A DNA stretch of 64,000 bases from Hyphomonadaceae bacterium (GTDB lineage: Bacteria > Pseudomonadota > Alphaproteobacteria > Caulobacterales > Aquidulcibacteraceae): contig JBFXCP010000010.1 in NCBI GenBank assembly GCA_050182055.1, forward strand, positions 42,773-106,772, in the 5' to 3' direction. The first letter of the stretch is position 1. Every line of letters starts with the position of its first letter. Position numbers and translations under genes: made by a program. Under the pieces are notes generated by a model, which saw only the letters and a program-made list of their open reading frames with translations, made no database searches and was not told the origin of the DNA. This document shows positions 12,816 to 37,865 of the stretch, piece after piece.

Positions 12816-13688
12816 TCAAACGCGAATGGCTTCCATCGCCTTGGTGGACGCGGTCAGCTCGCGATAGTGGCGATCGAAAGCGTCCGGCCCGCCGTCTCCC
12901 GCGATCTGCCTTGCCCAGCCTCTGCAGTCGTCGAGCCTGCGCTGCTCGTCGAACGTGGAGAGCGGCATTGCGTTGTTGTCGAACCACATCGACGTCTCCA
13001 GGTGGTCGCCCATGGTCTCGGCGGCTTCGCCGGTCATCAGCACGAGCGGATCGTTGGCGCCCGGGGCGCCGATCTTGTGCGTGCGTCCGAACACCAGCGC
13101 TTTCTTTCCGAAGCGAATGAAATTCGGGTACGTGAACAGCGCGGCTTCTTCGATCGGCGGCACGATGCGCAGCACATAGTCGCGACTGCCGTCGAAATAG
13201 AAGGCGTTGGCGGCGAGCGCGGCCAATCGCTGGACGTCGCGCGGCTGCTCGATGCGATGCAGCGTGATCTTGCCGGTGGAGATCGCCCTGCGAAGCTTAC
13301 CGTTGGCTTCTTTCGGAAAGCCGAAGCCCAGGCTCAGGGCGATCTTGGTTTCGAAGATCGGCGAAGCGCCAGCGTCGATGTAGTGACGCCACAGGTACTC
13401 GAGATCTTGCGCGTAGCGGCGTAGCGCAAACACCTCGCCGGCAGGAACGACGAAACGCTCCAGTTGACCCCAAGATGCAAAACCGAACTCTCTGCAGATG
13501 GTGCGGCGGCTCGTCTCCGTTATGTTGCCGCCGGACAGCCATTTTCGAATAGATGTCTCAGAAATGGTTGTTCTGTCGGCCAGGTTCCGCACCGAGAGTC
13601 TGAGGCGTGTGAGCAGACCCTCGATAATGATCGCCGTGCTCGGCTGCGATGAAATGCGCTTTGAAATTGGTTCGGGCGAGTGCGGCAT
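12816..13688 (-). CDS. HTH (XRE-like) domain protein with unknown ~220-aa C-terminal domain
   Basis: From MPHSPEPISK...: LRLSVRNLADRTTISETSIRKWLSGG helix-turn-helix. The 5' half of the gene is visibly AT-richer than its surroundings. The track ORF extends to 14120 across the divergent promoter, and that extension is rejected. Confidence 0.6.
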   Translation of the reverse strand: MPHSPEPISKRISSQPSTAIIIEGLLTRLRLSVRNLADRTTISETSIRKWLSGGNITETSRRTICREFGFASWGQLERFVVPAGEVFALRRYAQDLEYLWRHYIDAGASPIFETKIALSLGFGFPKEANGKLRRAISTGKITLHRIEQPRDVQRLAALAANAFYFDGSRDYVLRIVPPIEEAALFTYPNFIRFGKKALVFGRTHKIGAPGANDPLVLMTGEAAETMGDHLETSMWFDNNAMPLSTFDEQRRLDDCRGWARQIAGDGGPDAFDRHYRELTASTKAMEAIRV

Positions 13689-13874
13689 CGAAAGTGGCTT
13701 TCGGTTGTATACCGGTGTTGTCGCAGTGTGCCAGTAGTTTCGAAATGCAGTTAAATCCAATGTCCTCAGTGGAATAGAATGGTCCGACAGTACGGACAAC
13801 AGCGGCCTTGTCTGTGGGTTGTACAATATGCCGCCGTTCATTGTCCCGGCTATCGTGTGTCCCTGGAGGCGCAT

Positions 13875-15980
13875 ATGTCGGTGCATGAATTTCCACGACC
13901 GTCGCGGCCGGACACGCCCGTCAATCAAGAACGTTTCGCAACACAGCGCGCGCGGCTCGCGGACTACGATCTGCCCGGGCCTGCCCAAAACGAGCTGGCG
14001 CGGCGCGCGCCGGACTTTGGCGCGCTGGTGCGCCCGCGTCCGCTGTTGGAGGCGGTCGCGCAGATGGGCGCTGGCGAAACCGTCCGGATCGAGTTCCGCC
14101 GCGGCGACAAGGGCTGGCACATCGAATTGGCGGGCAGCCGGGCGGGCGCGCGAGCGAAGTCCGCGGCCGGTTTTTCGGCCCTCTTGAGCGCGGTGGCGCC
14201 GGGGGCCGAGTTCTGCAGCGATGCCGCGTCCCCGCCCAAGCGCTGCGCGTCGGTCGTTCGGTTGGCGCCGCGGCCCACGCAGGTGGAGGGAGCGGTGGAT
14301 GGCGCGCTTTGGCTGCCGCCCATGGGGTGGGGCGAGCCCGATCTTACACAGGCGCTGCGGATCGCGTTCGATCTCGGCGTGGAAACGCTGGCGTTCGAAC
14401 TCCGGCCTTTCCAGCTTGAGAGCGGCATGCGCGAACAGCTCGTGTCAGCCTCGTACCGGCTCGCCGAAAAAGGCAGCCCACACAACGAGGCGGCGCGCGA
14501 CTGCATCGCCACATGGCTCGGGGCGGGGTGCGGCTGCAGCGTCGGCGTCGAGGTCGCCTCCGCGCGCGCGTTGACCGAAGAAGGACTGAATGCACTCGCG
14601 CTCGCCTTGTTCGGCTGTACCCGCCATGCCGGCGCCGCGAAGGGCCTGGATTTGCGCATGGCGGTGCCGCTTGGCGCGCTGCCGGTTTGGCGCTTCTGGC
14701 CCACCTCCGGCGATCTACGCCGTTACGGCCGGCACAACGTCAAGATTGGCGCGGGATACGGCGCGCTCACTCTGGGCGTCGATGCAGCGGGGCGGTCTGT
14801 GCGCCTCGCCGCACGCGATCGCCCGTACCACGTTTTCGTGTGCGGCGTGGCGGGCTCGGGCAAGTCGACCCTGATTGGCAACTGCTGCCTCGAGGACATT
14901 AGGAATGGCGAGGGCATTCTGCTGATCGATCCGCACGGCGACCTGGCGCACAAAGTGCGCGCCGCCGTGCCGCGCAAGCGGCGGCGCGACGTGATCTGGA
15001 TCGATTTGGGCGATGAGACGCACGCGTGGCGCCTCGACCCGCTCCACACGCCAATGCGCCATCCTGACGCCGAGCGCGATCGCATCTCGAGCCAGCTGAT
15101 CAGCTATTTCCGTCAAATCTACGCTGGCGTGCCGGAGGCATTCGGGCCGTTGTTCGACAACGTCTTTCGAGGCGTCATGGCGTTGCTGCACTCGGCTAAG
15201 GAAGACGAGGATCGCACGCTGCTGAAGTTCAGAAAGGTGCTCGTCGACTCCCAGTTCCGGCGGAAGCTGCTGTCAGAGTGCACGGACAGCGACGTGGTCG
15301 AACTCTGGGACGAGATCCAGGAAGTCCACGGTGAGTGGTCGCTTGACAACATCTCACCGTACATCACTTGCAAGCTGAACCACCTGACGGGTCCAGGCAT
15401 GCGCCGCTTCATCGGCGGCGATAAGCCACGCCTCGATCTGCGCAAGGCCATGGACGAGCGCCGCATCGTCATCGTCAATCTCAACAAGGGTCAAATGAGC
15501 GACTTGGGCGCGCGTTTGGCGGGCGCGCTTGTTCTGATGGCGCTGAATGAAGCCGCGATGGGGCGCAGCGACATACCGGAAGATCAGCGCGTGCCGTTTC
15601 GCGTCTATTGCGACGAGTTCCAGACCATGGCCTCGGATCAGGCGGCGATCGCGCTCGCCGAGTGCCGCAAGTTCAACATCTCGTTGATGCTGGCCAACCA
15701 GAATCTCGCGCAATTGCGCGGGGGCTGGCAGGGGCCGACCGATGTCAGCCAGACGGTGCTCGCCAACTGCAACTCGCTGATCGCGTTGCGCACCGGCATC
15801 CATGACGCGCAGATTCTGGCGCCGTTGCTGGGGCTGGAGGACCACCGCGCCTTGGTGGACCTGAGTGTAGGCGAGATGATCGTCCGGCGGCTTGTCTTGG
15901 GCGTTCCTGGGTCTGCGCAGCGACTCTACGGGCTGCCGCCGGTGGCCCCGCCGCCGAAGCGCACCGCCAACGATCCGTGA
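13875..15980 (+). CDS. soluble TraD/VirD4/HerA-like (FtsK-HerA superfamily) P-loop ATPase with unknown N-terminal domain
   Basis: GGAGG lies 5 nt upstream of ATG 13875. 701 aa. Walker A is VCGVAGSGKST (nt 14844-14870), followed by LLIDPHGDL, and Walker B is FRVYCDEFQ (D580/E581, nt 15612-15617). RKFNISLMLANQNLAQL is a TraG/TraD C-terminal-like motif. No TM segments. Residues 1-320 are unassigned. Confidence 0.75.
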   Translation: MSVHEFPRPSRPDTPVNQERFATQRARLADYDLPGPAQNELARRAPDFGALVRPRPLLEAVAQMGAGETVRIEFRRGDKGWHIELAGSRAGARAKSAAGFSALLSAVAPGAEFCSDAASPPKRCASVVRLAPRPTQVEGAVDGALWLPPMGWGEPDLTQALRIAFDLGVETLAFELRPFQLESGMREQLVSASYRLAEKGSPHNEAARDCIATWLGAGCGCSVGVEVASARALTEEGLNALALALFGCTRHAGAAKGLDLRMAVPLGALPVWRFWPTSGDLRRYGRHNVKIGAGYGALTLGVDAAGRSVRLAARDRPYHVFVCGVAGSGKSTLIGNCCLEDIRNGEGILLIDPHGDLAHKVRAAVPRKRRRDVIWIDLGDETHAWRLDPLHTPMRHPDAERDRISSQLISYFRQIYAGVPEAFGPLFDNVFRGVMALLHSAKEDEDRTLLKFRKVLVDSQFRRKLLSECTDSDVVELWDEIQEVHGEWSLDNISPYITCKLNHLTGPGMRRFIGGDKPRLDLRKAMDERRIVIVNLNKGQMSDLGARLAGALVLMALNEAAMGRSDIPEDQRVPFRVYCDEFQTMASDQAAIALAECRKFNISLMLANQNLAQLRGGWQGPTDVSQTVLANCNSLIALRTGIHDAQILAPLLGLEDHRALVDLSVGEMIVRRLVLGVPGSAQRLYGLPPVAPPPKRTANDP

Positions 15981-26650: not shown

Positions 26651-27100
26651 ATGGCGTCTTGGGTGAAACGGGCGATGGCGGCGGCGGCCGCGCTTGCGCT
26701 GTTGGCGGGTCCCGCCGCGGCGCAGGTGCCGGACCCGTATGCCCGCGAACTGGCCCAGAAGCTCGCCCGCGCCCAGACTGTCGTGACCGAGCGGGGCTAT
26801 CAGCGCGCCGCCGGACCGTTCGCCGGGGGGCTGGGCGCCAGCGAAGATGCGCGCTTTCAGGTGATGCTGCGGGCGGGCATGGATTATCGCATCGTCGGCG
26901 TCTGCGACTCGCGCTGCAGCGATCTCGACATGCGCCTCTATGACCCGAACGATCAGCGCGTTGCGGAAGACGTTCTCGACGACGCGGTGCCGGTGATCCA
27001 CATCTTGCCGCAATCCACCGGCCAGCACACGATCGAAGTGCGGATGCGGCGCTGCGGCAGCGATCCGTGCTGGTTCGCGTTCAACGTCTATTCGCGCTGA
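26651..27100 (+). CDS. secreted Cys-rich beta-domain protein, homologous to the periplasmic domain of the TIR protein at 36259..37311
   Basis: Sec signal MASWVKRAMAAAAALALLAGPAAAQ. Motif DYRIVGVCDSRCSDLDMRLYD...RMRRCGSDPCWFAFNVYSR aligns with DYSIVGVCDGDCGDLDLVLYD...VMHNCTVSPCFYALALYGR. Confidence 0.65.
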   Translation: MASWVKRAMAAAAALALLAGPAAAQVPDPYARELAQKLARAQTVVTERGYQRAAGPFAGGLGASEDARFQVMLRAGMDYRIVGVCDSRCSDLDMRLYDPNDQRVAEDVLDDAVPVIHILPQSTGQHTIEVRMRRCGSDPCWFAFNVYSR

Positions 27101-28049: not shown

Positions 28050-29594
28050 TTAGGGTGTGGTGGGCGCTGCGGCGGGATCGGCTGGCGCCGCCTCGGCGGG
28101 CGCATCGTAATACTCGGCGGCAGGCGCCTCGGTCGCTGCACCATAGTAATTGGGATTGTCGGTCCAGCGGCACCCGCGGTCAGCGTGCTGACAGCGGTAG
28201 GCGAAGTTGTTTGCGGTGCTGTCGGCCTCATCGGCCACGGTGTCGCTGAGTTCGATGAATGAGTCCTGCCAAGACCGGCCCAGAATGGCGAGATAGGGGG
28301 GCGGGGGAATGCTAACTTCTTCCTCGCGGTTGTTGGTGCGTCCGTGCACGAGCTGGACGCGCGCATTCTGGCCCTCCGTGTCCCACACTGTTCCTACAAA
28401 GATCGATCCGGCCGCATACTCCCCATAGTCTCGGGTCTGAATGAAATACGTCCCGACAATCCGGCTCATGAATTCGAGGTCCGAACTGTCCAGTTCGCCC
28501 GACATGCTGAGCATGAGCAGGCGCGGATCGAGCCATGCGCCGGAGCTGTTGCGCAGTGCAGCGTACGTCCACCCGCCTTCGCATGCATTCATGGAGCGCG
28601 CAGCGCAGGTATAAGGAAAGCGTTCGCGGTCGAACACGTTTTGTCGTGCGAACAGAGCGTCAGAAAGCGATTGCAGCTCCGCCCGCCACGAACCGCCGAG
28701 ATATGTGAGTTGATCGCGGGCAACGGTGATTGCACGTTCCGGCCTGGCTGTTCTGCCGTAGACAACGTTCACATCGAGTTTGCCGTCGGGCCGCCAGGCC
28801 ACGCCGCGGACGACCGCGCCGGCTGCGATATCGTCACCGCCGGCAACCGCCTCGCCAGAACCGCCCACGTACATGAACAATCCGCCGATGCAGTTGCATG
28901 GCGCCTTGTCTGAGCTCGGCGCTTGCGCCGTCCAGCGGCCGCGCTCGCTGACGACGTTCTCGGCGGTCCACGAACTTGTTGCTGGAGAGAGCCGGGCTGG
29001 GCACAGCACGAAGAAGTATGCAGCCGCGGCAACTACCGCCAGCGCGGCCAAGCCGCCGCCAACCATCGCCAACATCCGCGTCGGCAGGGCGCGCTGCTGG
29101 GGCTTGGCCGCGGGCTGGACGCGCGGGGCCGCGAACGCCGGCGCCGGCGCGGCGTGCGCCGCCGGTTGCTGCGTGGCGGTCTGCTGGTCCGGCAGCGCGA
29201 GCAGGCGGCGCACTTCGGTGACGAAGTCATCCCACTCGGGATGGTCCATCGCGCCGTTCCAATCCGAAAGATCGGCGGCCTGCATCTGGCCCCAGCCGAG
29301 CGGCACGGTGCAGCGCTCGAGCATCACCGGCATGACCGACTTGCCCATCTGCTGGGAGGCTTTGGCTTCGTCGAGCACCCAGCTGGCCTGCGATGGGTCC
29401 TCGGTGCGCTTCGACCAACAGACGACCACGATGCGCGCGTCGCGGATTTGCGCGCCGATCCAGGACGCCCAGGTTTGCCCGGGTGGAATTTTCTGGTCCC
29501 ACGCGACCGATATGCCGAGTTGCGTCAGCCCCTGAACAACAGCCTCGACGCGCTCCCTGTCCTCGCGCTTATAGCCGATGAAGACATCCGCCAT
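28050..29594 (-). CDS. TIR-domain membrane protein (cytoplasmic TIR, 1 TM, duplicated periplasmic domain)
   Basis: MADVFIGYKREDRERVEAV... TIR_2-like N-terminus with SWVLDEA (the Glu aligns with the catalytic Glu of the SxWCxxE motif). Pro/Gln/Ala linker. TM at residues ~174-197 (nt 29004-29075). About 315 aa exported region with paired Cys and an internal repeat. Confidence 0.85.
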   Translation of the reverse strand: MADVFIGYKREDRERVEAVVQGLTQLGISVAWDQKIPPGQTWASWIGAQIRDARIVVVCWSKRTEDPSQASWVLDEAKASQQMGKSVMPVMLERCTVPLGWGQMQAADLSDWNGAMDHPEWDDFVTEVRRLLALPDQQTATQQPAAHAAPAPAFAAPRVQPAAKPQQRALPTRMLAMVGGGLAALAVVAAAAYFFVLCPARLSPATSSWTAENVVSERGRWTAQAPSSDKAPCNCIGGLFMYVGGSGEAVAGGDDIAAGAVVRGVAWRPDGKLDVNVVYGRTARPERAITVARDQLTYLGGSWRAELQSLSDALFARQNVFDRERFPYTCAARSMNACEGGWTYAALRNSSGAWLDPRLLMLSMSGELDSSDLEFMSRIVGTYFIQTRDYGEYAAGSIFVGTVWDTEGQNARVQLVHGRTNNREEEVSIPPPPYLAILGRSWQDSFIELSDTVADEADSTANNFAYRCQHADRGCRWTDNPNYYGAATEAPAAEYYDAPAEAAPADPAAAPTTP

Positions 29595-29663
29595 GATCCG
29601 TGCTCCCGCCGCCGGGCACTAGATACCACGCCGTGACGATAAGGGAACGGGCTGGCGCTGCGG

Positions 29664-30188
29664 CTAGGGGCGTGTCACGCGGCCATTTTCCCAGTAGCCG
29701 GCGGCGATGATCCCGCCCTGAGGGTCCCAGTAGACGCCGTAGCCGTTCTGCATGTCGTCGCCGTAGCGGCCTTCGTAACGGCGTCCGTCGACGAAGACAT
29801 ACACGCCGTAGCCGGTCTTGACGCCGCCGTTCTCGCCCTGGCGATGCTCGCCTGCGTAGTACTCGCCGTCGTTCCAGAAAATGAAGCCGTAGCCGTGGCG
29901 CTGCGGCACGTCGGCGTCGCATTCGGCGCATTCGCCCATGTAGGAATCGCCGCCGACGCCGGTGAACTGAATCGTGCCGCGTGCGCGGCCCTGCGACCGC
30001 GCAGCTGCCTGTAGCGCAAGCTGCGCGGCGCGGCGCGCGGTTTCGACCGCCTCGCGGACATCGGGGCTGAGCTGCGCCAGATCATAGGGCGCGGCGGTTT
30101 GCTGTTGCGCTGCGGCCTCGCGCGGCGCGGTCGTGACGGCCGCGACGAGAAACGCGGCAACGGCCAGAGATCGGAGCGTGGAGTGCAT
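29664..30188 (-). CDS. exported MORN-repeat protein
   Basis: Start at MHSTLRSLAVAAFLVAAVTTAPREAAAQ (signal). Repeats of the type YAGEHRQGENGGVKTGYGVYVFVDGRRYEGRYGDDMQNGYGVYW. 69 nt upstream of the TIR gene. Confidence 0.7.
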   Translation of the reverse strand: MHSTLRSLAVAAFLVAAVTTAPREAAAQQQTAAPYDLAQLSPDVREAVETARRAAQLALQAAARSQGRARGTIQFTGVGGDSYMGECAECDADVPQRHGYGFIFWNDGEYYAGEHRQGENGGVKTGYGVYVFVDGRRYEGRYGDDMQNGYGVYWDPQGGIIAAGYWENGRVTRP

Positions 30189-30196
30189 CTGTCGCC

Positions 30197-30892
30197 TCAC
30201 ATCGGTTGTACGAGTTCGCCGCCCTGCCAAAGGCCCGCGCGCTCGACTTCGCCTTCGGGATTCCAAAGCACGCCATAGCCCTGATACTGGCCGCCGGAGA
30301 ACTGACCCTCGTAGCGCCAACCGGTCGGCAGGCGTTGCACGCCGAAGCCGTTGGTGCGCCAGTTGGCGACTTCACCCGAGCGGATTTGGCCGTCGCGATA
30401 GATGCGCACGCCGACGCCGTTCGCCTCGTCGTTGGCGAACTGGCCCTCGAAGCGCAATTGGCCGGGCGTGTTGTTCTCGTTGTCGGCCCAATTGTAGACG
30501 CCGTAGCCCTGGTAGCGATTGTCCGCGTGCTCGCCCTGGTAGGAGTCGCCGTTGAAGACGCCGCCGATGAAGGTGGTGACGCCGTGGCCCTGCGCGCCGT
30601 TCTGGCCCCAGCCGCCGGCGTAACGCTGACCTTCCGTGCTGTTGTCGACGAAGAAGCCGCGCTCGCCGCGGCGTGCGCGTTCGGCGGCTTCGGCGCCGCG
30701 TGCAGCGTGTTCGCGTGCGGTCGCGGCGGCGCGCTGCGCCTCCGCTTCACGTTGGCGCGCGGTGAGGACCGCATCGCGCACGGTGGGATTGAGGGCGCTC
30801 ACATCGTAGCCGCCGCTGGCCTGCGGGGCGCCTGTCGTCGCGCACGCCGCCGCAGACAGTGCGAACGCCAACGCTATCGCCAAATTTCGCAT
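30197..30892 (-). CDS. MORN-repeat lipoprotein
   Basis: MRNLAIALAFALSAAAC lipobox. Repeats YQGEHADNRYQGYGVY..., FEGQFANDEANGVGV..., YEGQFSGGQYQGYGVLW. 8 nt upstream of the next MORN gene. Confidence 0.75.
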   Translation of the reverse strand: MRNLAIALAFALSAAACATTGAPQASGGYDVSALNPTVRDAVLTARQREAEAQRAAATAREHAARGAEAAERARRGERGFFVDNSTEGQRYAGGWGQNGAQGHGVTTFIGGVFNGDSYQGEHADNRYQGYGVYNWADNENNTPGQLRFEGQFANDEANGVGVRIYRDGQIRSGEVANWRTNGFGVQRLPTGWRYEGQFSGGQYQGYGVLWNPEGEVERAGLWQGGELVQPM

Positions 30893-30969: not shown

Positions 30970-31674
30970 TCAGCGCCAGTCGGCGTAGTGCGCCTCGATG
31001 TCGGCGTCGAGCTGGACGCGGTCCACGTCCGGGCGCACGCGGAAGAGGGCCATGCGCCCGACATTGCGCACGCGTTCGAGGTGGCGCTCGACCACGTAAT
31101 AGTGTTCGCGATCCATGTAATCGTCGATGAGGATCGCGCCCTCGCGGCCGATCAGGAAACGCGCCGCCGAAAGCGCGCAGGCGACGCGGAAGCGGCCGTC
31201 CACCAGCACGAGGTGTGGGCCGGGCAAATGCTCCATCGCCGCCCACGGCGCGCTGGGATAGCGCCTCCAGCGCGCGACGCGCGCCGGCGTCGGCGTGCGC
31301 ATCAGCGGCGCGCCCCATGCTTCGGTGACGCCGATGTCGACGGCCAGAAGATCCTGCTTCTGGCGATCGAAACGACCGAGCGATGTGAGTTTGCGCTTCA
31401 CCGCAGCGAGAAAGTGCTTGTCGGACTCGACCGTCGTCATGCGCATGCCGTGCATCGCCGCAAGCACGGTCGATCCGCCAGCGCCGAATTCCAGATAGCT
31501 GGTTGCGACGGCGAGACATTCGAGGAAGAACGGCACGCACGCCGCCTCAAACTCGGGCTGATCGGAAACGGTGAATCCGCTGACGCGCTGGACATAGGCA
31601 AAGCGTACGTAATCGACCACGCGGCCGATCTTGTTGCTTGCCCAATCCCCCAAGATCGCACTGACCGCGTTCAT
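30970..31674 (-). CDS. class I SAM-methyltransferase-like protein (unknown substrate)
   Basis: SYLEFGAGGSTVLAA (motif I-like) and LVLVDGRFRVAC. 234 aa. Weak assignment. Confidence 0.5.
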   Translation of the reverse strand: MNAVSAILGDWASNKIGRVVDYVRFAYVQRVSGFTVSDQPEFEAACVPFFLECLAVATSYLEFGAGGSTVLAAMHGMRMTTVESDKHFLAAVKRKLTSLGRFDRQKQDLLAVDIGVTEAWGAPLMRTPTPARVARWRRYPSAPWAAMEHLPGPHLVLVDGRFRVACALSAARFLIGREGAILIDDYMDREHYYVVERHLERVRNVGRMALFRVRPDVDRVQLDADIEAHYADWR

Positions 31675-35210: not shown

Positions 35211-36197
35211 ATGGCGGACGTGTTCATCTCCTATGCCCGAGAGGATCGCGCGCGGGCCGATCAAGTCGCGCGCGGCCTGGCGGCGCTTGGCTTGGAGTCG
35301 TTCTGGGATAACGAGATCCCGCCTGGGCAGACCTGGGCCGACTACACCGAGGAAAAGCTGACCTCGTGCAAAGTCGTGGTGGTGTTGTGGAGCCAGCACT
35401 CGACCAAGTCGCAATGGGTGCGCGAAGAGGCGCGCATGGGGCGCGACAAGTCGAAGCTGATCCCGGCGATGATCGACAACGTGGCGATGCCGTTCGGTTT
35501 CGGCGAAGTGCAGGCAGCCAATCTCTCGACCTGGCAGGGCGAGGCGCAGCACCCGGATTGGATGCGGTTCACGCAGGCCGTCTATCGCGCCGCGCGCGGG
35601 GGCGAGGCGCCCGCGCCGCCGTCGGCCGCGCCGCAATGGGCGCCGCCGCCGCAAGCGCCGCCCAAATCTCCGCCTGCGGCTCAATCCGGCGGCTGGTCGA
35701 TTCCGCAACCGCCGCCGCAGCGCGAGAGCTGGACTCAAGCGCGGGAGGCGAGTGCGGCCGGGCTGCGTGCGCCGCTCTTCTACGTCAAGAAGTGCCTGCG
35801 GCAGTTCGCCGACGGCGCCGGGCGCGCGCGGCGCGCCGAGTATTGGTGGTGGCTGCTGTTCGGTTTCCTGTTGTCGGTGATCGCGTACGGCGTCGATGCG
35901 CAGATTTTCGGCGCGGACCCCTACACCAGCATTCCGTACCAGCAGGTCGCTTCGGCCATCGTCGGGCTGGCGCTTCTGGCCCCGAGCGTGAGCGTAACGA
36001 GTCGCCGGCTGCACGATTTCGGCATGAGCGGCTGGTTCGCCGGCGCGATCACCGCCGCGCTGACGATCGGAAGCGCCTTTCCGACGACAGTTCTCGGCGG
36101 CTTGGTCAGCCTCGCGGCGCTGATTGCGGTGATCGGCGTCGGCGTGGCGCCGGCGACACCTGGGCCCAACCGATACGGCCCCAATCCCAGGGGCTAA
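35211..36197 (+). CDS. TIR-domain protein fused to a DUF805-type polytopic membrane domain
   Basis: MADVFISYAREDRARADQV...SQWVREEARMG TIR. Pro-rich linker. The C-terminal RAEYWWWLLFGFLL...SRRLHDFGMSGWF matches the DUF805 (YhaH/YhaI-like) signature from memory. Confidence 0.85.
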   Translation: MADVFISYAREDRARADQVARGLAALGLESFWDNEIPPGQTWADYTEEKLTSCKVVVVLWSQHSTKSQWVREEARMGRDKSKLIPAMIDNVAMPFGFGEVQAANLSTWQGEAQHPDWMRFTQAVYRAARGGEAPAPPSAAPQWAPPPQAPPKSPPAAQSGGWSIPQPPPQRESWTQAREASAAGLRAPLFYVKKCLRQFADGAGRARRAEYWWWLLFGFLLSVIAYGVDAQIFGADPYTSIPYQQVASAIVGLALLAPSVSVTSRRLHDFGMSGWFAGAITAALTIGSAFPTTVLGGLVSLAALIAVIGVGVAPATPGPNRYGPNPRG

Positions 36198-36258: not shown

Positions 36259-37311
36259 ATGGCGGACGTATTCCTATCGTATGCGCGCGAGGATTCCGGG
36301 CGCGCTCAACAGATCGCCGAAGGCCTTCAGGCCGAGGGGCTGGCCGTGTTCTGGGACACCGAGATTCCACCCGGCACGACGTGGGCCGACTACATCGAAG
36401 AGAAGCTCGCACAGTGCAAGGCGCTGATCGTGCTGTGGAGCGAGCACTCGACCAAGTCGCAATGGGTGCGCGAGGAAGCGCGCATGGGGCGCGACAAGGG
36501 CGTGCTGATCCCGGTCATGATCGATGCGTCGCAGCCGCCGTTCGGCTTCGGCGAAGTGCAGGCCGCCAATCTCGCGAACTGGGCCGGCGATCGTCAGGAT
36601 GTGAACTGGCGTCGCTTCGCCGACGCCGTGACGCGGTTCTCGAGCGCGGCGCCGCGGCCGGCGCCGGCGCCGCAGACCGATCCCGCGCCGCAACCTCAGC
36701 CTGCGCCGCAACCGCTGCATCACACGCCGCAGCCTCAGCCCGCGGGGCCGTCTGCGTGGTCAACGCAGGCGCCGCCGGCGCAGGGCGCGCGAAAAGCGGT
36801 GCCGCAATGGATGCTCGTCGCCGGCGCCGCCGTCGCGACGCTGATCGTGATCGCGGGCATCACGATGTTCATGAACCGAGACGGCGGGCAGACGCCGCAG
36901 GGCGTGCAGACCGCTGTCGGCGGCGGCGGCCAAAACTACCAGCAGCAGATCAACGACCGCTTGGCGGCGGTGGCGCCGACCTTCACCTCACGCGGCTACC
37001 AGCAACTCACGCAGCCGGTGAGCGGCAGTCTGGAGCAAGGCGCAGTGGCCAACGTGCCGATCAACCTGGAGGCTGGCGGCGACTACAGCATTGTCGGCGT
37101 CTGCGACGGCGATTGCGGCGATCTCGATCTGGTTCTCTACGATCAGAACAGCGTGCTGATCTCGCAAGACAACGCCGCCGACGCCACGCCGATCGTCTCG
37201 GTCGCGCCGCAATGGAGCGGGCCGTTCACGGTTCAGGTGGTGATGCACAATTGCACGGTGTCGCCGTGCTTCTATGCGCTGGCGCTCTATGGGCGCCGCG
37301 CCGGGCAGTGA
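36259..37311 (+). CDS. TIR-domain membrane protein (cytoplasmic TIR, 1 TM, Cys-rich periplasmic beta domain)
   Basis: MADVFLSYAREDSGRAQQI...SQWVREEARMG TIR. Pro/Gln linker. TM WMLVAGAAVATLIVIAGITMFM. C-terminal domain homologous to 26651..27100. Confidence 0.85.
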   Translation: MADVFLSYAREDSGRAQQIAEGLQAEGLAVFWDTEIPPGTTWADYIEEKLAQCKALIVLWSEHSTKSQWVREEARMGRDKGVLIPVMIDASQPPFGFGEVQAANLANWAGDRQDVNWRRFADAVTRFSSAAPRPAPAPQTDPAPQPQPAPQPLHHTPQPQPAGPSAWSTQAPPAQGARKAVPQWMLVAGAAVATLIVIAGITMFMNRDGGQTPQGVQTAVGGGGQNYQQQINDRLAAVAPTFTSRGYQQLTQPVSGSLEQGAVANVPINLEAGGDYSIVGVCDGDCGDLDLVLYDQNSVLISQDNAADATPIVSVAPQWSGPFTVQVVMHNCTVSPCFYALALYGRRAGQ

Positions 37312-37312
37312 C

Positions 37313-37555
37313 CTAGACGCGGTTTTCCAGCACGAACACCCGCACGGCCGAAGCGAGTGAGGCGTCGGGCGAGGCCTTGCCGCGCTTTTCGTCGATGGAC
37401 GCGATCAGCACCGGCAGCGTCATCCCCTTGGCGCGCGCGATGTTTTCGAGTGCGGACCAGAATTCCTGCTCCAGCGCCAGCGATGTGCGGTGACCTGCGA
37501 TGCGCATGGAGCGCTTCTGCAGCGCGCCTCTAGTGATCGTAATCATCATGTTCAC
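37313..37555 (-). CDS. ribbon-helix-helix (RHH_4-like) protein
   Basis: LQKRSMRIAGHRTSLALEQEFWSALENIARAKGMTLPVLIASID pattern. Its stop is 1 nt from the TIR gene stop. Confidence 0.6.
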   Translation of the reverse strand: MNMMITITRGALQKRSMRIAGHRTSLALEQEFWSALENIARAKGMTLPVLIASIDEKRGKASPDASLASAVRVFVLENRV

Positions 37556-37721
37556 GTCTGTGTCCGTCGAGTTTTCGCTCGGCGGCCTCTGCTTCGGTCT
37601 GAGCCAGTTTCTTGTCGGCCTTCTTGCGGCCGAACTTGGCGCGGTTCGCCGACGCCTTGGCGTCTGCTGCGACTCGCGCCTTGTCTTTGCGCACGCGTTT
37701 CAGGTTCACGACATCGCCCAT
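37530..37721 (-). CDS. small basic protein (DUF4169-like)
   Basis: MGDVVNLKRVRKDKARVAADAKASANRAKFGRKKADKK. From memory, this family accompanies the RHH gene near fumC in alphaproteobacteria. Confidence 0.55.
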   Translation of the reverse strand: MGDVVNLKRVRKDKARVAADAKASANRAKFGRKKADKKLAQTEAEAAERKLDGHRREHDDYDH

Positions 37722-37865
37722 TGCCGCAAAACTAAGCCGCTACCGCTTGCGCGCCAACTACGACAAAGGGACTAGAAGCGTTGCTTACACTCTTTTGTGT
37801 AACGCGAACTCCGCTTGTCACGCGTCTGCGAGCCAATTGCGAGAATCGAGCGGACGCGCGCATGT

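Follow-up and report, generated by a model that had tools for sequence, protein, structure and literature searches.

In the 64,000-nucleotide stretch of Hyphomonadaceae DNA analyzed here (the window), three adjacent minus-strand genes encode two predicted exported proteins with MORN-type repeats (MORN-A and MORN-B) and a protein, T1, that begins with a TIR domain (Table 1). By its sequence features, T1 is a member of a large, abundant, and uncharacterized family of receptor-like proteins in which a constant TIR domain, a linker, and a transmembrane (TM) region are combined with a variable ectodomain. The co-orientation of the three genes, with gaps of 8 nucleotides (MORN-A/MORN-B) and 69 nucleotides (MORN-B/T1), had been recorded in a first-pass annotation of the window and is borne out by the list of open reading frames (ORFs) and their coordinates; the gap between T1 and PrmA is 56 nucleotides. 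A scan for promoters and terminators places nothing in the intergenic regions, and finds no terminator-like site separating MORN-B, T1, and PrmA. Of the codons that differ between T1 and the 99%-identical copy at locus L002, 42 carry synonymous and 5 carry non-synonymous changes, and this ratio argues that T1 is a genuine gene maintained by purifying selection.

Table 1. Coordinates of T1, its parts, and related or adjacent genes in the window.
Feature	Coordinates	Strand	Description
T1	28050..29594	-	514-amino-acid ORF: TIR, Pro/Ala/Gln linker, single TM segment, tandem rare ectodomain, Ala/Pro-rich tail
T1 TIR domain, residues 1-132	29199..29594	-	Pfam TIR_2; contains W72-x3-E76
T1 predicted TM helix, about residues 175-197	29004..29072	-	Kyte-Doolittle peak 2.29
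T1 ectodomain unit 1, residues ~207-340	28575..28976	-	A1-profile hmmsearch domain E 1.4e-32 (unit belongs to the scoring profile); ends in C330/C338
T1 ectodomain unit 2, residues ~344-478	28161..28565	-	A1-profile hmmsearch domain E 1.9e-26 (unit belongs to the scoring profile); ends in C468/C475
MORN-B	29664..30188	-	174 amino acids; begins at an internal ATG of a longer TTG ORF
MORN-A	30197..30892	-	231-amino-acid predicted MORN lipoprotein, Cys17
h234	30970..31674	-	Methyltransferase-like; PDB 3CVO, E 1.5e-24
x149	26651..27100	+	149-amino-acid free, predicted exported paralogue of the T3 ectodomain
T2	35211..36197	+	328-amino-acid TIR-DUF805 paralogue, three TM segments; tblastn with T1 TIR, E 5e-34
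T3	36259..37311	+	350-amino-acid paralogue: TIR, TM segment, x149-like ectodomain

T1 starts with MADVFIGYKREDR, and Pfam places TIR_2 (PF13676) on residues 4–112 with 67.5 bits (cut-off 28; E 1.9e-18), which upholds the earlier assignment of a TIR_2-like domain lacking a signal peptide. Trp72 and Glu76 lie within the motif SWVLDEA and form a W-x3-E motif, the Glu of which we take to be the catalytic residue in NAD-cleaving TIR domains. All 34 aligned members of the family share Glu76, and a W/F/Y-x3-E motif is retained in 90 of 100 metagenome ORFs of the family. Solved TIR domains are only marginally similar in sequence (E 0.29 for T1, 4e-4 for its paralogue T2); the equivalent Glu of T2 aligns with that of plant RUN1 (SRWCLDE) and of PdTIR (WPQKE), and the alignment of Glu76 with these residues is transitive, via T2. 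On this footing, the proposal of a catalytic-type Glu in SWVLDEA stands, and the domain is classified by its sequence as an NADase-type TIR_2 domain.

The TIR domain of T1 is followed by a linker (residues 133–172) with 8 Pro, 13 Ala, and 7 Gln, a single hydrophobic segment (about residues 173–198), and a C-terminal region of about 315 residues that contains the Cys pairs 233/235, 330/338, and 468/475 (further Cys residues are located at 59, 95, and 198); all of these elements had been described correctly before. Three Lys or Arg residues flank the hydrophobic segment on the TIR side and one on the far side, and across the database relatives the first TM segment has more Lys/Arg on its TIR-proximal flank, which argues that the TIR side is cytoplasmic. 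Together with the lack of a signal peptide, the Cys pairs, and the occurrence of homologous ectodomains behind signal peptides (P0034, P0036, and P0037) or after a TM segment and PG_binding_1 (P0035), this bias makes it well supported that T1 is a single-pass inner-membrane protein with a cytoplasmic N-terminal TIR domain and a periplasmic C-terminal region, as the first-pass annotation had proposed. There is very little chance that the topology is reversed or otherwise different, with a cytoplasmic C-terminal region or a hydrophobic segment that does not span the membrane: the hydropathy of the segment is moderate (the first 19-residue window to reach the threshold of 1.6 scores 1.62), and three proteins with a T1-type ectodomain (P0032, P0033, and P0039) have no obvious signal peptide, but the family-wide bias obeys the positive-inside rule, the ectodomain cysteines are paired, domains of this type are found behind signal peptides or TM plus PG_binding_1, and export would be impossible for an N-terminal TIR domain without a signal peptide.

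The T1 ectodomain consists of two tandem units with the motif G.W…P.F.HYF…GAIV.G..W…VVHG…LTYLG..W…LSD, followed in T1 by a Cys pair. It has no sequence match in Pfam or the PDB, and in an exhaustive search of 1.84 billion proteins (E ≤ 1e-3) only 10 representative proteins contain the unit; a word-indexed profile search seeded with alignment A1 of the ectodomain yields a single new protein, and the family is recovered only by the exhaustive search. The members (P0032–P0040) define a previously undescribed periplasmic domain of about 115 amino acids, present in one to five tandem copies and fused to TIR–TM, PG_binding_1, or LprI: P0035 is a TIR–TM–PG_binding_1 protein with three units, P0040, a fragment, comprises TIR–TM and one unit, and P0034 additionally carries the lysozyme-inhibitor domain LprI. 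Given the signal peptides in P0034, P0036, and P0037 and the TIR–TM portions of P0035 and P0040, the domain family is predicted to lie outside the cytoplasm, and its fusion to TIR–TM has occurred at least twice. AlphaFold2 models of the unit (predicted local distance difference test [pLDDT] 78.6 and predicted template modeling score 0.77 for one unit; pLDDT 75.6 for two units) exhibit a five-stranded barrel and a helix. Foldseek ranks SH3/Tudor/KOW barrels highest (top 7nzd, probability 0.99, target-normalized template modeling score 0.68, E 0.04–0.05), and no match at E ≤ 0.001 is obtained against the PDB (two models) or BFVD.

T1 has a sole full-length homologue among database proteins (P0001, 99% identical); the remaining database matches share the TIR domain only, and a scan of genome contigs with full-length T1 returns one distant TIR-only locus (L001). 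The TIR–TM part belongs to a far larger group, defined here by an MADVF(I/L)(S/G)Y start, a TIR domain, a linker of low complexity rich in Pro and Ala, TM segment(s) that follow within about 20–120 residues, and a variable C-terminus, all of which T1 possesses. The N-terminal TIR domain is of the MADVFISYAREDR type, and the C-termini include DUF805, TolB-like/TPR (P0022 and P0024), PG_binding_1 next to the TM segment (P0030 and P0035), and others. Of 30 database relatives, 28 have one or more TM segments after the TIR domain. Metagenomes scanned with a TIR alignment yield at least 440 relatives; the query consisted of six sequences, and biases the 80 loci analyzed toward T2/T3-like proteins. 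TM segments are present in 64 of the 80 complete metagenome ORFs (48 single-pass, with a median ectodomain of about 200 amino acids, and 16 multi-pass). In a clustering of 48 ectodomains, 18 unrelated clusters emerge, and that of T1 is a singleton. A membrane-spanning TIR protein with a periplasmic domain, set apart from the known bacterial TIR modules in the first-pass annotation, is thus not exceptional, as many related proteins are built in this way.

The TIR domain closest to that of T1 among the matches listed (49% identical, and sharing the KRTED…W insertion) belongs to a 342-amino-acid TIR–TM protein with an unrelated ectodomain, encoded at L020 in a position other than that of T1. Within T1, GC content at third codon positions (GC3) is 0.714 in the part encoding the ectodomain and 0.837 in the part encoding the TIR domain, most neighboring genes having 0.82–0.88. 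The unrelated ectodomain on a related TIR domain and the GC3 contrast point to an exchange of ectodomains on a TIR–TM framework. In addition, the GC content of 600-bp windows at 28100–28300 is 0.605–0.615, within the 1st to 3rd percentile of the window (mean 0.671), and the AT-richer 3′ half of T1 that had been noted before is therefore real; its composition is consistent with the suggested foreign origin, in that T1 looks recently acquired or mosaic.

Two further members of the family, T2 and T3, lie in the same window 6–8 kb from T1 and had been overlooked. They are arranged in tandem and occur at the same position in all relatives that share the surrounding gene order, and in this they resemble core genes more than parts of a defense island. 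The T3 ectodomain has a free counterpart, x149, which is similar to T3 (E 1e-27) and to the C-terminus of P0008 (E 5e-27) and has no Pfam match; x149 adjoins PrmA, the 3′ end of which it overlaps by 13 nucleotides, and is kept there in relatives. x149-like ectodomains are found in 19 of the 80 metagenome loci, and the pairing of T3 with free x149 repeats the pattern of TIR–TM–MORN fusions and free MORN proteins described below. Directly after T3, a low-GC stretch (about 0.60) is located at 37350–37750, where relatives carry small RHH_4 and DUF4169 genes. In a related genus, the Terricaulis sp. locus L004 (GCA_044224985.1, 1021–8151) contains three adjacent TIR genes annotated by Pfam; some 2.6 kb upstream of the trio, beyond two unannotated genes, lies a further match to TIR that is weak. 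As judged from these matches, the cluster is a local expansion of the family.

MORN-A contains MORN repeats (PF02493) scoring 40.6 bits, above the Pfam cut-off of 22.5, whereas MORN-B reaches 20.3 bits and remains below it, yet is homologous to MORN-A (E 3e-12); the earlier description of both as MORN-repeat proteins therefore stands in full for MORN-A and for MORN-B by homology. Both have Y-x-G...G-x-G repeats, and the N-terminal motif YD(V/L)..L(N/S)P.VR(D/E)AV.TAR reported for the pair is found in both. In MORN-A (MRNLAIALAFALSAAAC), the LSAAAC lipobox with Cys17 that had been proposed fits a PROSITE-style pattern by inspection, and MORN-B has a predicted signal peptide (MHSTLRSLAVAAFLVAAVTTAPREAAA, followed by QQQ) as judged by eye. 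An Ala-rich, Lpp-like helix in MORN-A matches NCBIfam Ala_zip_lipo at E 0.016, below the cut-off. Compared with other PF02493 proteins, MORN-A and MORN-B differ in their predicted export (as a lipoprotein and via a Sec signal, respectively), in the YD..L.P.VR.A motif and the Ala-rich helix, and in recurring as the ectodomain of TIR–TM proteins. The upstream gene h234, absent from the first-pass annotation, is conserved: in L010/L011 and L016/L017 an orthologue precedes the MORN genes, in L037 one precedes a fusion gene, and by gene order h234 travels with the MORN genes.

The relatives compared share a backbone of PepP–x149–PrmA–UvrD–…–T2–T3–FumC at 73–97% amino-acid identity, and the slot between UvrD and PrmA, in which T1 and the MORN genes reside, differs among them. 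It holds nothing or small ORFs in L005 and L007; MORN-A only in L012 and L014; h234, MORN-A, and MORN-B with PrmA directly after in L010/L011; h234, MORN-A, and MORN-B in L016–L018 (UvrD 97% identical); two paralogous lipoprotein-like ORFs with a GQYRTTV…CVTS motif and a further 135-amino-acid ORF in L020 (3372–5430); h234, MORN-A, MORN-B, and T1 in the window and L002; and, in L037, an h234 orthologue and one 531-amino-acid TIR–TM–MORN gene. In L018, the closest relative outside L002, MORN-B is followed by a different minus-strand gene (1606–2088) for a predicted exported protein with repeated G.CR.W.D..P...QP....C motifs. The MORN-A orthologues in this slot are 54–81% identical. Judged by its contents, the slot is a hot spot of variation in periplasmic genes. 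The MORN–MORN–TIR arrangement, called an operon in the first-pass annotation, is not conserved: it is restricted to the window and L002, and MORN genes occur without T1 in L010/L011, L012, L014, and L016–L018. A TIR gene without MORN genes had been set beforehand as the result that would speak against the linkage; what is found in L018 is its mirror image, MORN genes with another gene in the place of T1. Alignment of the flanking intergenic regions places T1 directly upstream of a conserved PrmA leader, and because the slot varies among relatives and the leader is conserved, T1 is best read as a recent accessory addition next to the MORN genes in this lineage.

A link between the two protein families emerges at another level, in three TIR–TM–MORN fusions. 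P0030 is a TIR–TM–PG_binding_1–…–MORN protein in which TIR_2, PG_binding_1, and MORN all score above cut-off, and its C-terminus is similar both to MORN-A (E 4e-19) and to MORN-B (E 2e-13; the N-terminal motif aligns at 6e-8). L038 encodes a 425-amino-acid TIR–TM–MORN-like protein (3.7e-13 with a local MORN-family profile hidden Markov model), followed by a free MORN gene. In the backbone relative L037, the fusion gene occupies the orthologous UvrD–h234–X–PrmA slot and encodes TIR, a TM segment, a YDLAQLHPQVRAAAAEARRA motif, and MORN (TIR_2 68 bits, MORN 23.7 bits), with a C-terminus similar to MORN-B (E 7e-15, including the YDLAQL motif). The TIR–MORN association proposed for the locus thus holds at the family level. 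These Rosetta-stone fusions make a functional link between the TIR–TM family and the exported MORN family plausible, and since MORN domains serve as the ectodomain of TIR–TM proteins in other genomes, MORN-A and MORN-B are plausible partners or modulators of T1.

The genes around T1 are of the housekeeping type (LigA, M20 peptidase, PepP, PrmA, UvrD, FumC, SspB, aquaporin, and ThyA; the M20 peptidase label derives from a Pfam match on the L012 orthologue), and no integrase, transposase, or tRNA is found among the proteins scanned within about 15 kb of T1. PADLOC gives no significant match (best E 0.0065, partial), and NCBIfam assigns no system to T1 or its neighbors; NCBIfam ThcB4 matches T2 and T3 only, at 33–40 bits against a cut-off of 220. 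The earlier statement that no named defense system fits is sustained by these searches, and the check for co-localization with a defense island, also suggested then, finds none near T1. Thoeris was considered and rejected, as no ThsA-like neighbor (SIR2/SLOG or Macro/TM) is present and PADLOC has no Thoeris match; so were a CBASS or Pycsar TIR effector, given that T1 and its neighbors contain no cyclase and no SAVED, STING, or cNMP domain, and an Avs system, for which there are no partner genes. Elsewhere in the window, the lowest GC content (down to 0.555) occurs at 12950–13600, and just downstream, at 13779–15980 on the plus strand, lies a gene for a 733-amino-acid TraG/TrwB-type coupling-protein-like ATPase; this region may be a conjugative-element remnant.

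T1 shares a TIR_2-type fold family, the Glu of the W-x3-E motif, and self-association as the likely means of activation with AbTir, PdTIR (3H16), BtpA/TcpB (4C7M), and ThsB. Those proteins are soluble and cytosolic or secreted, whereas T1 is predicted to have an inner-membrane anchor and a large domain in the periplasm. The TIR domain with a catalytic Glu is likewise common to T1 and to Thoeris, CBASS and Pycsar TIR effectors, TIR-STING, TIR-SAVED, and the E. coli systems TIR-I to TIR-IX; T1 differs in having no ThsA, cyclase, SAVED, STING, or other partner gene and in residing in a housekeeping context. By domain content and gene neighborhood, T1 fits no named bacterial TIR system. All characterized bacterial TIR systems, to our knowledge, sense their trigger in the cytoplasm. 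In the searchable literature, no description is found of membrane-spanning bacterial TIR receptors, TIR plus MORN, or TIR plus DUF805. The order of cytoplasmic output, TM segment, and periplasmic sensor is that of ToxR/CadC-type and TM-anchored TPR/TolB-like one-component sensors, and the TolB-like/TPR ectodomains of P0022 and P0024 are typical of this class; the output domain of T1 is TIR, whereas that of ToxR/CadC-type sensors binds DNA.

The first-pass annotation had likened T1 to animal Toll-like receptors (TLRs), and the comparison is apt in that animal TLRs and interleukin-1 receptors also have one TM segment between a variable extracytoplasmic binding domain and a cytoplasmic TIR domain, and form paralogous repertoires with constant TIR domains and varied ectodomains. 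The domain order, however, is inverted: the animal receptors are type I proteins (signal peptide, leucine-rich-repeat or immunoglobulin ectodomain, TM segment, and C-terminal TIR), whereas T1 is type II, with the TIR domain first and the ectodomain last. Moreover, T1 lacks leucine-rich-repeat and immunoglobulin domains, and its TIR domain is of the enzymatic bacterial type. T1 is therefore not a member of the TLR family, and the likeness is a convergent analogy in topology, not orthology.

Self-association is the usual switch that turns on TIR NADases. We tentatively propose that T1 is a receptor-like TIR protein in which clustering of the ectodomain by an envelope cue activates a cytoplasmic NADase, a possibility to which we give slightly less than an even chance. 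The ectodomain would bind an envelope-associated and probably multivalent ligand, such as cell-wall material, an envelope protein, or a component of an invader; PG_binding_1 beside the TM segment in P0030 and P0035, and LprI in P0034, provide a hint of the cell wall. Ligand binding, or the state of the envelope, would cluster T1 in the membrane and bring the cytoplasmic TIR domains together, and the active TIR domains would cleave NAD+; either the resulting loss of NAD+ would cause growth arrest or abortive infection, or an ADP-ribose-derived signal would arise. The MORN proteins may act as periplasmic partners of T1. Several observations weigh against this proposal. T1 is absent in L010/L011 and L016–L018 even though the MORN genes are kept, so that a T1–MORN unit is not supported by synteny. 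A three-residue insertion right before Trp72 renders the direct alignment of T1 with AbTir offset and ambiguous. The SH3-like core of the ectodomain unit is tentative, as the best structural match (E 0.04) is not statistically significant. Pfam, PADLOC, and NCBIfam detect no ThsA-like, SLOG, Macro, or SIR2 effector and no defense island near T1, and in all relatives T2 and T3 belong to the syntenic core, which is unusual for phage defense.

Alternatively, T1 may work alone, its adjacency to the MORN genes being an accident of insertion into a variable slot and the MORN proteins having an unrelated periplasmic role. This account is a reasonable one, if on balance doubtful: the differing slot contents of L005/L007, L012/L014, L010/L011, L018, and L020, the conserved PrmA leader with T1 upstream of it, the lack of relationship between the T1 ectodomain and MORN, and the existence of solitary TIR–TM genes elsewhere in the family (L019) all favor it, but the association recurs in three independent TIR–TM–MORN fusions, one of them in the same slot (L037) and one with an adjacent free MORN gene (L038). 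TIR NADases commonly serve phage defense, and many TIR domains work as adaptors. If T1 were a single-gene abortive-infection protein that senses phage at the envelope and kills by NAD+ depletion, its accessory, strain-restricted, and compositionally atypical nature would be expected, as would ectodomain swapping on a constant TIR domain, the pattern predicted under an arms race. TM domains are also present in some anti-phage TIR systems of E. coli (PMC11350192). We nevertheless consider this explanation unlikely in view of the lack of a significant PADLOC match or any NCBIfam match, the housekeeping surroundings with no defense-island or mobile-element genes beside T1, and the conservation of the paralogues T2 and T3 as core genes. 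That same housekeeping-like conservation would suit a non-enzymatic role, in which the TIR domain is an oligomerization scaffold and the family consists of tethers or organizers that link the envelope to a cytoplasmic assembly, and PG_binding_1 together with the Lpp-like helix of MORN-A hints at cell-wall tethering; the invariance of the NAD+-cleavage Glu and the wide retention of its motif in metagenome ORFs argue for retained catalysis, however, and make a scaffold quite improbable.

Extended to the whole family, the receptor-like reading would describe a widespread bacterial class of TM–TIR proteins with a constant NAD+-cleaving TIR domain, one TM helix, and interchangeable periplasmic domains (MORN, PG-binding, TPR/TolB-like, x149-like, and the new SH3-like domain), in which free copies of these domains serve as co-receptors or decoys. 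Such a class would be a convergent counterpart of TLR signaling that turns envelope cues into NAD+ depletion or ADP-ribose-derived messengers; we regard this generalization as speculative and, in its full extent, rather unlikely.

The analysis defines an exported MORN family that recurs with TIR–TM proteins. If the receptor-like reading of T1 is true, TIR biology would gain a mode of outside-in sensing, in which the enzyme is connected through the membrane to a variable ectodomain in the periplasm, and bacteria would offer a directly testable analogue of TLR-type signaling. The family is well represented in metagenomes, and two of its members, T2 and T3, belong to the syntenic core of one alphaproteobacterial lineage; its role may therefore not be limited to phage defense but include envelope homeostasis.

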